DNA of 64,000 bases from Methylocystis sp. Its GTDB lineage: Bacteria; Pseudomonadota; Alphaproteobacteria; Rhizobiales; Beijerinckiaceae. The stretch covers positions 3,519 through 67,518 of the forward strand of contig JBIIJP010000005.1 of assembly GCA_044233645.1 (NCBI GenBank), written 5' to 3'. Below are positions 4,529 to 58,400 of the stretch, one piece after another. The notes beneath the pieces were generated by a model. The model did no database searches and was not told the DNA's origin. It worked only from the letters and a program-made list of their open reading frames with translations. Within the stretch, counting starts at the first letter, position 1. Every line of letters starts with the position of its first letter. The translations under genes were made by a program, and so were the position numbers.

Positions 4529-4762
4529 TTGCCCACCATCAAAATTCATTGGGACCTGATTTTTTTCGTCTTCCTGATTGTGTTTTCGGCGCTCTGGACC
4601 ATGACGCCATGGATGGTGTGGCGTCCGGGTTTTCAGTCGGAACTGGCGCCTTCCCGGTTTGAAGCACCGGGTGCCTTTTCGGTTTATTTCCTCCCGATCT
4701 TTTTTGGTTGTGTAACGCTTTCGGAGCTTGCGGACCCGAGATTTTCAACGCAAGCGGCGTAA
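4529..4762 (+). CDS. hypothetical small membrane protein (TTG start)
   Basis: 77-aa ORF with two hydrophobic segments (LIFFVFLIVFSALW, VYFLPIFFGCV). No recognisable family; weak support. Confidence 0.2.
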   Translation: MPTIKIHWDLIFFVFLIVFSALWTMTPWMVWRPGFQSELAPSRFEAPGAFSVYFLPIFFGCVTLSELADPRFSTQAA

Positions 4763-4992: not shown

Positions 4993-5253
4993 ATGGAGAA
5001 AAACCGTTTCTCTCGTTTGCCCATTCGTCGTGGTCTCGGGGCGGCCGACGCTGCAATCTACATTGGGATTGGCGTCAGCCTATTCCGCCAAATGGTGATG
5101 GACGGGCGTATGCCCCGCCCAAAACTCCTGAATGGCCGTCGTATCTGGGATGTTGATGAAATCGACGCGGCGTTCAAAAGCCTGCCCCGTGATGGGGGTG
5201 AAACAGATGAGGTGATGGTAGACACATGGGCGGACGTGGCGCACGTATCCTGA
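4993..5253 (+). CDS. AlpA/excisionase-like HTH DNA-binding protein
   Basis: Small ORF just upstream of and overlapping the integrase. LGAADAAIYIGIGVSLFRQMVMDGRMPRPKLLNGRRIWDVDEID is the typical AlpA/Xis-type helix-turn-helix layout. ATG at 4993 (TTG at 4990). Confidence 0.7.
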   Translation: MEKNRFSRLPIRRGLGAADAAIYIGIGVSLFRQMVMDGRMPRPKLLNGRRIWDVDEIDAAFKSLPRDGGETDEVMVDTWADVAHVS

Positions 5254-6260
5254 TCCCTTATATCCACTCCTATGCCGATCGGCATGGCAAGGAACGATAT
5301 TACTATCGCCGTGGCGACAGGCGTATGGCGCTCCCGCCGCCCGACGCGCCCGACTTTATGGACAAATATAAAGCAGCTGCAGAGGCTCTTGCAAAAGAAC
5401 CTGCGCCAAAGTTGCGTGGAGAAGCTGGGACGTTTTCGAGACTTATCGCAGAATATGAACAATCAACCGATTTTAAGCGCCTGAAATTCTCTACCGCCGC
5501 CGTTTACCGGAACATGTTTGACAAGTTCTCCGCCAAACATGGCCATCGTCGTGTTGATCAGATGAAACGTCAACATGTCGATCTCCTGATCGCATCCATG
5601 GCTGATCGTCCAGGTGCTGCGAATTCCTTTCTCAAACGTCTCAAGAAGCTGATGGTGTTCGCGATATCGCGAGGTTGGATCACGAGTGATCCAACATATC
5701 GAATGAAAGGCTTCAAAGCCGGAGAAATCCATACCTGGACCGAGGCTCAAATCTCTCAATTTGAAAGTCATTGGCCTGTCGGCACCAAACAGCGGCTGGC
5801 TTTTGCGCTTCACCTCTATACCGGTCAGAGACGCTCAGACGTTCATCGCATGACCTGGGCGGATTATGACGGAGAAGGGATCCTCGTCACCCAACAGAAG
5901 ACGGGAACCAAGCTGGACCTCCCGGTCCACCCCGAGCTTAAATCCATCCTTGATGCTTCGCCCAAGTCCAGGGATACGATCGTTCTCACGGAATTTGGCC
6001 GGCCGTTCACGGTGGCTGGGTATGGGGCATGGATAAACGCCGCCATTCGGGCAGCCGACCTTCCGGTGGAATGTGTAGCTCACGGTCTCAGGAAAGCGGC
6101 GGCGCGGCGGATGGCTGAGGCTGGATGCACGCCGCACGAGGTGGCGGCGATTACGGGTCACAAAACGCTCGGCGAGGTCGAAAGATATACGCGCGCGGTC
6201 GATCAGAGACGGTTGTCGCGCGCCGCAATTGAGAAACAATCGCGGAACATGAATGGCTAA
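5226..6260 (+). CDS. tyrosine-type site-specific integrase
   Basis: Phage-integrase catalytic region LHLYTGQRRSD ... AHGLRKAAARRMAEAGCTPHEVAAITGHKTLGEVERYT (R, H-x-x-R, H, Y). The 3' end of tRNA-Glu lies 66 bp downstream. Confidence 0.9.
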   Translation: MGGRGARILIPYIHSYADRHGKERYYYRRGDRRMALPPPDAPDFMDKYKAAAEALAKEPAPKLRGEAGTFSRLIAEYEQSTDFKRLKFSTAAVYRNMFDKFSAKHGHRRVDQMKRQHVDLLIASMADRPGAANSFLKRLKKLMVFAISRGWITSDPTYRMKGFKAGEIHTWTEAQISQFESHWPVGTKQRLAFALHLYTGQRRSDVHRMTWADYDGEGILVTQQKTGTKLDLPVHPELKSILDASPKSRDTIVLTEFGRPFTVAGYGAWINAAIRAADLPVECVAHGLRKAAARRMAEAGCTPHEVAAITGHKTLGEVERYTRAVDQRRLSRAAIEKQSRNMNG

Positions 6261-6325: not shown

Positions 6326-6401
6326 TGGCGCGCCCAAGGGGATTCGAACCCCTGTTTTCGCCGTGAAAGGGCGACGTCCTAGGCCTCTAGACGATGGGCG
6401 C
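6326..6401 (-). tRNA. tRNA-Glu: tRNA-Glu (anticodon UUC), CCA encoded
   Basis: Reverse complement GCGCCCATCGTCTAGAGGCCTAGGACGTCGCCCTTTCACGGCGAAAACAGGGGTTCGAATCCCCTTGGGCGCGCCA has a 7-bp acceptor stem, anticodon loop CTTTCAC and T-arm AGGGGTTCGAATCCCCT. Confidence 0.9.
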
Positions 6402-8043: not shown

Positions 8044-8655
8044 GCCTTCCCCGCCCTCGACAAGCTGAGTGTAAACTGCGTTGATTGCCCCCTGCAACTC
8101 TCTCCACACCGGGTCGATAGCGACATTCGGACCCCAGTTATAAAGCGCCTTCGCAACCTCGGCGATCGTCTCGTTGATTGGCTCGCTGCCGCCTTCCTCA
8201 AGTTCATGTGAAAACAAGCGCGGCGGACATTCGCCTCGCCATGTTTGCCAATGTTCGTTAGCATAAAGGGAAACCCCTCCCCGAGCCGCAAGCCTTTCCG
8301 ACGTGTAAGCGGCAAATTGTCGATGCAACGGACCATCTGCGCCTTCCTGATTGTAGGCTCGCGCGACAGCAAAATATTTCACATGCTGGATTTCATGAGC
8401 GAGACAGCAAGCCATGCGTGCGTCGCTCATCCTCGGATCGTAATAGATCACGATCTCGCCATCAGGCAGCGCTTCCCCCTCCGATGTGAAACTTTGTCCG
8501 AGATAATCAAAGGTTTTCACTGCTGCGACGAGACTCACCTTGCCGGGATCATAGCCAAATTCCAGTGTCAAGGTGCGCAGTCTTTCCTGCCGTCGCAAGA
8601 ATTCCGCCGGGTCGATTAGCGCGTCGAACGATGTGTCTTCTGTGGTTTCGCTCAC
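7924..8655 (-). CDS. hypothetical protein with HExxH zinc-metallopeptidase-like motif
   Basis: 243-aa ORF with a GTG start, containing CCLAHEIQHVKYF. It overlaps the stop of the upstream ORF (GTGA), and its last ~40 codons are antisense to the antiporter 3' end. Confidence 0.5.
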   Translation of the reverse strand: MSETTEDTSFDALIDPAEFLRRQERLRTLTLEFGYDPGKVSLVAAVKTFDYLGQSFTSEGEALPDGEIVIYYDPRMSDARMACCLAHEIQHVKYFAVARAYNQEGADGPLHRQFAAYTSERLAARGGVSLYANEHWQTWRGECPPRLFSHELEEGGSEPINETIAEVAKALYNWGPNVAIDPVWRELQGAINAVYTQLVEGGEGLPPPENRGDDHVETDERGAVDHIGAAIDGNDGDDQDRQE

Positions 8656-57187: not shown

Positions 57188-57285
57188 AGGCGAGACACTG
57201 TGCTGACGGAGTGAAAGCGCCGGCGTATCCTAACAGAATTTCACAGATTTTGGCGCGATGTCGCTCGCCGAAGGATCATGGTCGT

Positions 57286-57510
57286 CTACAGAGACGGACG
57301 TAGATGGGAAAGCGCCCCCTGCTCGTTCGATAATCTTTTGCACTCGGCGACAATTTGCACGTCCGCGCCGTAACGCGTCGTGACGGGCGTAACGCCGGAA
57401 AGCGCGTTCTGGCGTGTTTGCTGACATTCCTCCATACTGGCCGCGTCGAACGTTTCCCTATCAATGACATGACCGCTCAAAAGGTAGGCAATCACCAGAA
57501 CCGTTTTCAT
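57286..57510 (-). CDS. hypothetical small exported protein
   Basis: 74-aa ORF with GGAG SD about 9 nt upstream, hydrophobic N-terminus MKTVLVIAYLLSG and two Cys. No family recognised. Confidence 0.35.
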   Translation of the reverse strand: MKTVLVIAYLLSGHVIDRETFDAASMEECQQTRQNALSGVTPVTTRYGADVQIVAECKRLSNEQGALSHLRPSL

Positions 57511-57863
57511 GATTCGATCTCCAGAGGATGGAAAAACCCCTGGCCACGACGTCTGGCTTTCTGGCCAATGGATAGATAAAGCGCCGAAATCGATGTCTCC
57601 CCAGGATCAAGATCTGCGAAACCGGGGAGGTGGGGTAGCGTGGCATTACCTTGGCAAGAATCCTGCCGGTTTTTGCAACTGGCTGAATGAAACAACCAGC
57701 ACTTCAAACGTATCAAAAAACTCGGATCTCCATGGATGTCGCATAAAATGACGAAACGAGGGGCGAGAAGTAATATGTCGCCGGTTCGAGCAGTGAGGAA
57801 TTTCGATCAGGATCGAACAAATTCTGCGCTACGCGAGAATAACAGTCCTATCGCGGGATAATT

Positions 57864-58181
57864 TGGTGCGGGCGGCCGGAATCGAACCGGCACAGGCCTT
57901 TCGGCCCTACGGATTTTCATACCCGCTACGGCTTTCGCCGCCCCGCTCACGCGGGTTTGGGGTCTGGACTATCCCTTCGCCATCGCTGTCGGACGCGTGT
58001 CCAACCAAGCCTTAGGCGCCGCCCGTCTAGTCTCTACACCTTCCCGCCGCAACTGGCGGGCTTGGCTCGGGATCGCCACTTGTGGAGGTTTCCCCGAATT
58101 TGAGCGGTTCTGCACCGCCGGTTTCCCGGCCGGGCACTCAATTTTTAAGTCCGTTGCGTCTACCAGTTTCGCCACGCCCGC
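57864..58181 (-). tRNA. tRNA-Leu: tRNA-Leu (anticodon UAA) interrupted by a group I intron; exons 58181-58147 and 57917-57864
   Basis: Joined exons GCGGGCGTGGCGAAACTGGTAGACGCAACGGACTT + AAAATCCGTAGGGCCGAAAGGCCTGTGCCGGTTCGATTCCGGCCGCCCGCACCA give an 89-nt class II tRNA. It has a 7-bp acceptor stem GCGGGCG/CGCCCGC, anticodon arm ACGGA-CTTAAAA-TCCGT, a long variable arm and an encoded CCA. Confidence 0.9.
57918..58146 (-). ncRNA. group I intron (IC3-like, 229 nt, no ORF)
   Basis: Inserted between U34 and A35. The exon end ACUU can pair with intron GAGU (nt 8-11), giving the splice-site U-G pair, and the last intron nt is G. GAAA-capped hairpins include GCCGGGAAACCGGC and CGGCGAAAGCCG. Core strings CAAAUUCGGGGAAACC, CCGAGCCAAGCC, GGAAGGUGUAGAGACUAGACGGG and AUAGUCC are present. 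Confidence 0.85.
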
Positions 58182-58400
58182 TAACCCATGGGGTTATAAG
58201 TCGCAGGCGCGGAACTCGACAAGCGGAATTTCAGGCGCCTGCCGGCCTTGTCCTCACCTCTGATGCGCGACTCCCATCCTGGAGCGACGACAGGGGTCTT
58301 ATTGTCGCAGAGAGGATTGAATGTTTGGGGGGAGCTAAGGTGATGAACAATGGAAACATAGATTATTACAAATTTTCCATATATATAGTATGTCGCCGGG

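Follow-up and report, generated by a model that had tools for sequence, protein, structure and literature searches.

We analyzed a 64-kb stretch of DNA (64,000 nucleotides of contig JBIIJP010000005.1 from Methylocystis sp., hereafter the window) and observed on its minus strand a gene for tRNA-Leu(UAA) in which a group I intron of the IC3 type, 229 nt long, separates U34 from A35. We consider it highly probable that this is a functional tRNA gene whose intron belongs to the large Leu.3Ug family, a family without open reading frames (ORFs) that occupies the same site in Alphaproteobacteria, Acidobacteriota and other phyla. The group I intron itself is real and correctly delimited and, judging from its sequence, almost certainly functional. 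The split gene is composed of the following parts:

58147..58181, minus strand: tRNA-Leu(UAA) exon 1, 35 nt, with the acceptor 5' strand, the D arm, the 5' anticodon stem and C32 U33 U34; its 3' end reads ...ACGGACUU; found by ARAGORN spliced and unspliced.
57918..58146, minus strand: group I (IC3-type) intron, 229 nt, with 5' end AAAAAUUGAGU and 3' end GGGUAUG; supported by Rfam Intron_gpI and by covariation in the family.
57864..57917, minus strand: tRNA-Leu(UAA) exon 2, 54 nt, with A35 A36, the 3' anticodon stem, the long variable arm, the T arm and the acceptor 3' strand.

A preliminary description of this DNA had proposed that two minus-strand exons assemble into a complete 89-nt tRNA-Leu(UAA) and that a 229-nt insert sits exactly between U34 and A35. 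Both proposals were confirmed. Using ARAGORN on the joined exons, we obtained an 89-nt class II tRNA-Leu(taa), and in its intron-aware mode the program returned from the genomic sequence the same tRNA-Leu(taa) with a 229-nt intron (35/36 in ARAGORN numbering), in agreement with direct extraction of the insert. Exon 2 begins with AAAAUCCGU and ends with CGCACCA, the CCA being encoded in the gene. When a uridine before the 5' splice site (U-1), a terminal intron guanosine (omega-G) and a valid tRNA were required together, a single boundary was left within the anticodon loop. In addition, the identical 318-nt split gene is present in an independent ENA metagenome assembly (L001), and the split gene is therefore no assembly artefact.

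We drew the intron helices P1 to P9 by hand, with the seed alignment of Williams and its consensus structure as a guide (Williams 2020, bioRxiv 10.1101/2020.01.27.920355). All the proposed intron pairs are standard pairs in the window sequence, and the anatomy is as follows, from the 5' splice site to the 3' splice site:

58136..58150, minus strand: P1 hairpin, in which exon ACUU and intron AA pair with the internal guide UUGAGU (ACUUAA/UUGAGU).
58112..58135, minus strand: P2 hairpin, capped by a GAAA tetraloop, with six pairs changed on both sides in the family.
58102..58107, minus strand: P3 5' strand CCGCUC, partner of 58019..58024, with 100% of the cells paired and 4/6 pairs compensatory.
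58099..58101, minus strand: J3/4 AAA, directly upstream of the P4-P5-P6-P6a domain.
58038..58098, minus strand: P4-P5-P6-P6a domain (UUCGGG/CCCGAG, CC/GG, CC/GG, CCCGCC/GGCGGG).
58028..58034, minus strand: P7 5' strand G-A(bulge)-GACUA, partner of 57966..57971 (UAGUCC), in the pseudoknot that forms the guanosine-binding site.
58019..58024, minus strand: P3 3' strand GGGCGG, partner of 58102..58107.
57978..58018, minus strand: P8 and its extension P8a, holding CCUAAG...GAUGG, which is nearly the same as the 11-nt GAAA-tetraloop receptor of Azoarcus P8.
57966..57971, minus strand: P7 3' strand UAGUCC, partner of 58028..58034.
57921..57963, minus strand: P9 three-way junction, with P9 (ACCC/GGGU), P9a (GUGA loop) and P9b (GAAA loop).
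57918, minus strand: terminal guanosine (omega-G) before the 3' splice site, in the intron end ...GGGUAUG.

U34 (58147) and intron G8 (58139) make up a U•G wobble at the 5' splice site. This pair and the pairing of exon ACUU with intron GAGU had been read in the preliminary description, together with a final G of the insert and four core strings; we recovered each of them in the sequence. Among 51 aligned relatives, the splice-site pair was U•G in 49 and C-G in 2. P7 crosses P3 as a pseudoknot, and P5 is minimal (CC/GG and a 9-nt loop). By analogy with Azoarcus, the CCUAAG...GAUGG motif of P8 may act as a tetraloop receptor.

To evaluate this structure, we used a MAFFT alignment of 51 family sequences and the 61 pairs of the model, against 500 shuffles and against partners slid by ±1-3 columns. 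We observed that 95.4% of the cells were paired and that 28 pairs had changes on both sides, for a total of 243 such cells. None of the 500 shuffles matched the observed value on any measure, and slid partners paired in just 25-43% of the cells. Compensatory changes were found in P2, P3, P5, P6a (4/4 counted pairs), P8, P8a (3/3 base pairs), P9 (one pair), P9a (4/4 pairs) and P9b (4/5 pairs), including in P8 an A-U to G-C switch at columns 188/230 (28 vs 19 sequences). P4, P6 and P7 never varied and are therefore backed by conservation only, to which the alignment with the covariance model is added for P7 (99.7% of the cells paired). The same picture was obtained on 101 distinct sequences. The full Rfam Intron_gpI model (RF00028, positions 1-253) aligned to 57950..58156 of the minus strand with 43 bits under E-value reporting, with E=1.3e-9 in a local search and E=1.3e-7 over the whole 64-kb window. 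This match, significant by E-value even though 43 bits is below the gathering score of 50, and the covariation agree with the earlier assignment of the insert to group I introns of the Azoarcus/Anabaena (IC3) type. The preliminary description had named the lack of a significant Intron_gpI match as a ground for rejecting this assignment; such a match was obtained.

We then estimated the size of the family with a pattern scan of one genome per GTDB species, using GGGATAGTCCAGRCC-N(30-60)-GAAAATCC, which runs from the P7 3' strand to omega-G and on into the beginning of exon 2. As the pattern needs 23 fixed bases, the result is a lower bound: at least 120 species genomes matched. The figures given below for the family refer to the 120 matches listed. 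Both exons could be extracted in 113 loci, and exon 1 was not found upstream in the other seven. All of the 113 loci have an intron of this type, placed directly behind position 34 of a leucine tRNA gene, with exon 1 ending in GGACUU (Leu(UAA)) in 111 of them and in GGACUC (Leu(CAA)) in the remaining 2. Of the spliced products, 102 were recognized as tRNA-Leu by ARAGORN. This program misplaced some boundaries in relatives by 1-2 nt, and these slips were corrected by the U-1/omega-G rule; the Ser(aga/gga), Phe(aaa/gaa) and Ala(agc) labels that it gave to some relatives are such slips, and these genes are Leu(UAA) under the rule. In all the validated family members omega-G is followed by AAAAUCC, the terminal G being fixed by the search pattern itself. 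Intron lengths ranged from 200 to 277 nt, which leaves no room for an endonuclease gene, and no member had an ORF. Likewise, the ORFs overlapping the 229-nt window intron had no significant Pfam match to a homing endonuclease or any other family (best E=0.16), as anticipated in the preliminary description. The window intron was 70-86% identical to 101 other members.

The matches were distributed among Alphaproteobacteria (70 genomes), Acidobacteriota (30), unspecified Proteobacteria (8), Bacteroidota (4), Gammaproteobacteria (2), Binatia (2), Planctomycetota (2), Chloroflexota (1) and a 'delta' proteobacterium (1). Alphaproteobacterial genera among these matches are, for example, Sphingomonas, Bradyrhizobium, Caulobacter, Brevundimonas, Reyranella, Chelatococcus and Pelagibacterium, and the cultured strains among them include Sphingomonas yantingensis, S. 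canadensis, Bradyrhizobium lablabi, Reyranella soli, Chelatococcus reniformis, Pelagibacterium luteolum and Caulobacter sp. The nearest neighbor in the intron alignment was mostly of the same phylum (58/67 for Alphaproteobacteria). Mean intron identity was 0.78 within Alphaproteobacteria and 0.77 between Alphaproteobacteria and Acidobacteriota, values to be read with the little resolution that about 230 nt provide. Leu.3Ug is one of the four 'classical' classes of bacterial tRNA introns in a survey of 80,413 genomes (Williams 2020). The preliminary description had confined proteobacterial tRNA introns to other tRNAs (Ile-CAU and Arg-CCU); this statement does not hold, given the at least 70 matching genomes of Alphaproteobacteria and the listing of Leu.3Ug by Williams (2020). 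Overall, the locus is an ordinary member of a large and already catalogued intron class, shared at this site with well over a hundred other bacteria of soil and water. It bears weakly on the debate between a vertical and a horizontal history of the intron, as the whole known non-cyanobacterial clade does, and the particular importance given earlier to this locus was not retained.

Some members of the family deserve a separate mention. The two Leu(CAA) introns, L064:3646-3883 in a metagenome-assembled genome (MAG) of Acidobacteriota and L095:3836-4081 in Ca. Limnocylindria (Chloroflexota), are of the 'Leu.3Cg' type and have C, not U, ahead of the 5' splice site, so that P1 contains a C-G pair there. 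The Leu.3Cg variant was described from Proteobacteria only (Williams 2020). Some family members have only 200-204 nt, among them L057:4677-4888 (a Rhizobiaceae MAG), L014 and L017. They are equal to or smaller than the 205-nt Azoarcus intron, which serves as a minimal group I model.

We compared the window intron with the known systems, starting with the Leu.3Ug introns found outside cyanobacteria (Williams 2020; at least 120 loci). With these, it shares the host gene, the insertion point CUU/AAAA, U-1 and omega-G, the P1-P9 architecture and the GAAA loops on P2 and P9b. No qualitative difference was observed: the differences are in loops and peripheral helices only, with a longer P8a in the window and a P8 3' side that reads GAUGG instead of the (C/U)A(N)GG usual in the family. 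Identity to the seed sequence Ncf2.Leu.3Ug, which is GC-rich and 89% identical to a Sphingomonas locus, was 76%.

The tRNA-Leu(UAA) intron of cyanobacteria and plastids (Anabaena/Nostoc, Synechococcus elongatus 'Sel1'), reportedly described by Xu et al. and Kuhsel et al. in 1990, has the identical insertion site and host tRNA, and shares the IC3 core strings and a P9b GAAA hairpin ahead of the 3' end. In contrast to the window intron, cyanobacterial introns are AT-rich, have P4 CUCAGGG/CCUGAG and AGUCCAAUUC after P7, and often carry a long P6b. Identity between the window intron and Sel1 was about 67%, in a comparison confounded by base composition, and identity to proteobacterial introns in other tRNAs was 73% for Arg.5Ug, 73% for Thr.5Ug, 72% for Arg.3Ug and 71% for Lys.4Ug. 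On these sequence identities, the window intron appears no closer to Sel1 than to the proteobacterial introns of other tRNAs.

The tRNA-Ile(CAU) intron of Azoarcus ('Aol6.Ile2.5Ug'), the crystal-structure model ribozyme, carries the 21-nt J6/7-P7-J7/3 string GAAGGUGUAGAGACUAGACGG exactly as the window intron does; P4 and J3/4 also agree in sequence, L2 has a GAAA loop in both introns, P8 of both contains CCUAAGGC, and overall identity is 61%. The Azoarcus intron is located after position 36/37 of Ile-CAU, in another tRNA and at another position; its P5 possesses an 11-nt receptor and its P9 is simple, whereas the window intron has a minimal P5 and the three-way P9/P9a/P9b. The sequence of the Azoarcus olearius intron is part of the seed alignment of Williams (bioRxiv 10.1101/2020.01.27.920355). 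The alphaproteobacterial tRNA-Arg(CCU) intron (Agrobacterium; BbgpI of Bartonella bacilliformis) is of the same subgroup, in the same host class, and is 68-73% identical to the window intron. Its insertion site follows position 36 of another tRNA (Arg.5Ug), and its internal guide sequence therefore differs. This intron is scattered among relatives, is overlooked by standard tRNA annotation and self-splices (PMC7717549).

At the orthologous locus, the presence of the intron is patchy and close relatives are found both with and without it. Ordered by the identity of their Map protein to that of the window, the loci are:

L124, metagenome contig, Map 91%: 233-nt intron, about 88% identical; exons identical.
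L149, metagenome contig, Map 87%: no intron; 89/89 identical to the predicted spliced product.
L131, Methylocystis, Map 84%: no intron.
L126, Methylocapsa aurea, Map 84%: no intron.
L127, Methylosinus, Map 82%: no intron.
L053, Roseiarcus, Map 76%: intron present.
L133, metagenome contig, Map 71%: no intron; 89/89 identical to the predicted spliced product.
L055, Micropepsaceae, Map 68%: intron present.
L109, Caulobacter, Map 67.5%: intron present.
L037, Devosiaceae, Map 66%: intron present.
L050, unclassified Pseudomonadota, Map 61%: intron present.

The exons of the window gene agree in every base with those of L124 and with the intron-less genes of four metagenome contigs (L133, L148, L149 and L158), whose tRNA-Leu(UAA) matches the predicted spliced product at 89/89 positions. 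Because these natural 'empty sites' equal the predicted ligated exons, the 229 nt are a discrete insertion. In L133, L148 and L149, homologs of the genes that flank the window gene stand beside the precise empty site. Between L124 and the window, intron substitutions cluster in P2, P8a and P9a, and some of them are compensatory, which at the sequence level points to selection on the intron structure.

The distribution fits sporadic gain and loss and is compatible with either loss or transfer; the alphaproteobacterial tRNA-Arg(CCU) intron reportedly shows sporadic gain and loss too (Paquin et al. in 1999). A stronger proposal is that the pattern records a group I intron without an ORF that has moved recently and is still moving, by reverse splicing or by recombination with spliced or unspliced copies. 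This proposal is based on the orthologous locus, on tRNA exons that are 100% identical in close relatives and on the contrast between the intron-plus L124 and the intron-minus L149, Methylocystis, Methylocapsa and Methylosinus; we regard it as rather unlikely. If it were true, the intron pool of soil Alphaproteobacteria and Acidobacteriota, and not cyanobacteria alone, would be a reservoir exchanging with the classic trnL intron.

We also observed that L149 possesses two identical intron-less tRNA-Leu(UAA) copies, at 4575-4663 and 8316-8404, 3.7 kb apart, with AbiJ-like, Rieske and outer-membrane-protein genes in the interval. An integrase island between these copies was considered and rejected, as no integrase was found in the interval. 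In another relative (protein P0004), a phage-type integrase adjoins the same tRNA locus. The duplicate copies of L149 and this integrase make the tRNA gene seem a hot spot of integration or rearrangement.

Transcription of the split gene would be driven by a nearby promoter, for which we identified one candidate:

58193..58222, minus strand: promoter-like TTGTCG - 18 nt - TATAAC, its 3' end 11 nt upstream of the tRNA 5' end.

In the alignment, a GCTTGTCG...GCGAC.TATAACC motif is common to the window and L124 inside an otherwise divergent upstream region, which suggests that 58193..58222 is a probable promoter. A strict scan for the sigma-70 consensus called no promoter, and the sole terminator-like site is on the opposite strand.

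The transcribed intron would fold into P1-P9 around the P3/P7 pseudoknot, with the GAAA tetraloops of L2 and L9b probably docking on helix receptors; for L2, the receptor would probably be the P8 CCUAAG/GAUGG motif, as in Azoarcus. The reaction is expected to follow the canonical group I pathway, a two-step transesterification initiated by guanosine. An exogenous guanosine bound in P7 would attack the phosphodiester 3' of U34, presented by the U•G wobble of P1; the terminal G (57918) would next occupy the P7 site, and the freed 3'-OH of U34 would attack the 3' splice site. Ligation of the exons would give the 89-nt tRNA decoding UUA and UUG codons. The first intron nucleotides, AA, are predicted to pair with guide U12 and U13, and since the 3' exon opens with the same AA, it could displace them as a short P10. 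The anticodon stem of the exons (ACGGA/UCCGU) probably aids the alignment of the splice sites, by analogy with Anabaena, in which this stem is said to have such a role (Zaug et al. in 1993). UUA codons are in use in the window, with 46 of them across 18 ORFs including htpG, map and prmC, and the cell therefore needs the UAA anticodon.

Some observations weigh against a functional split gene. At the gathering threshold, Intron_gpI reported no intron in the whole window, its 43 bits being below the cut-off of 50 bits. The single-sequence minimum free energy was only modestly better than that of shuffles (z = -2.68) and the pseudoknotted core was not recovered in this way, which is expected for such RNA. 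The P8 receptor-like motif, with GAUGG, departs from the canonical UAUGG. The analysis shows the anatomy, the homology, the covariation of the structure and the precise empty site in relatives, and from these we infer the splicing of the window transcript, as well as catalysis and any help from proteins in vivo. Finally, 64 kb are visible, and a second intron-less tRNA-Leu(UAA) gene is possible elsewhere in the genome and would relax the selection here. Concerning the score, the gathering cut-off was reached by just four of 17 tested loci that clearly carry the same intron (51.9 to 58.2 bits). Because the other 13 also fall below 50 bits and the Intron_gpI seed was at that time without bacterial sequences (Williams 2020), the sub-gathering score reflects the model and not the sequence.

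The same Rfam score, the non-canonical base in P8 and the possible second copy outside the window, with in addition the two tRNA-Leu(UAA) copies within 4 kb in the intron-less relative L149, would suit a decaying tRNA pseudogene, in which the intron is inactive and the cell relies on the other tRNA-Leu(UAA) gene. We consider this very improbable: all the conserved core nucleotides and helices are intact and fit the family consensus, the exons equal functional-looking intron-less genes, the L124 intron is about 12% different yet its helices are kept, clear family members mostly score under the cut-off too (13/17), and the promoter-like motif is conserved. There is similarly little to recommend a genuine intron that does not self-splice autonomously under physiological conditions and needs a host protein to fold or to react, such as an RNA chaperone or a cofactor resembling a tRNA synthetase; many group I introns do require protein aid in vivo (restated in PMC7717549) and P5 is minimal, without the Azoarcus-type 11-nt receptor, but the compact IC3 relatives of Azoarcus, Anabaena and Bartonella (BbgpI) self-splice in vitro protein-free, the two GAAA tetraloops and the richness of the helices in GC suggest a fold that is stable by itself, and no candidate cofactor gene was found in the intron or conserved beside it. 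A functional tRNA-Leu(UAA) gene with a self-splicing intron of the Leu.3Ug family is thus the reading that we prefer. Self-splicing is established for the IC3 tRNA introns of Azoarcus and Anabaena. For the Bartonella tRNA-Arg(CCU) IC3 intron, it has been described (PMC7717549).

The genes that flank the split gene are housekeeping genes. On one side of the tRNA we found htpG, prmC, a DUF4167 gene and a MOSC-domain gene, and on the other side a helix-turn-helix (HTH) regulator, xpt, a cinA-like gene, map and radC. The window sequence comes from a metagenome. Named organisms with the best Xpt relatives were Methylosinus, Methylocapsa, Methylocystis, Methyloferula and Methylocella, at 51-62% identity (Hyphomicrobiales, Alphaproteobacteria), and the radC-map-cinA-xpt neighborhood is also found beside the intron-bearing tRNA-Leu of Roseiarcus, Devosiaceae, Micropepsaceae and Caulobacter. 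The host is alphaproteobacterial, which bears out the alphaproteobacterial backbone recognized earlier, and looks like a member of Hyphomicrobiales. From the tRNA 3' end to the MOSC-domain gene there is a 676-bp stretch (57188-57863) that holds only a 74-aa ORF (57286..57510, minus strand), called in other assemblies and without a Pfam match. In L124, a match to the suhB/mmgR family of small RNAs (5216-5289; 41.1 bits, equal to the gathering score), with a T-run behind it, is situated in the interval that separates the HTH gene from the intron-bearing tRNA-Leu; the search for this small RNA gave no match in the window, which is deleted at that place.

Default annotation misses the split gene. 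ARAGORN in default mode returned a 'tRNA-???(ga)' at 57864..57950 of the minus strand, which is spurious and made of the intron P9a/P9b hairpins and exon 2; a tRNA-Sec match of Rfam at the same place has the same cause (25.7 bits vs a cut-off of 47). This artefact could mislead automated annotation. The Rfam tRNA model gave no match to the intron-split gene, and the Intron_gpI threshold misses the intron and most of its relatives. Since default tools miss such a gene, the genomes concerned can seem to lack the only tRNA that reads UUA. Weak Rfam matches near the locus to Plastid-ycf2, snoR639 and permuted tmRNA (E 0.3-1) were attributed to chance. The known range of tRNA-Leu(UAA) introns is unchanged by this locus, as earlier catalogues list them outside cyanobacteria and they abound in Alphaproteobacteria. 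What the locus contributes is a further compact, GC-rich IC3 ribozyme sequence without an ORF, together with a filled and an empty site whose exons are identical, a pair that could be useful for work on how introns are gained and lost. Apart from the split gene, a single RNA gene was detected in the window, an ordinary tRNA-Glu(UUC) at 6326-6401 on the minus strand.

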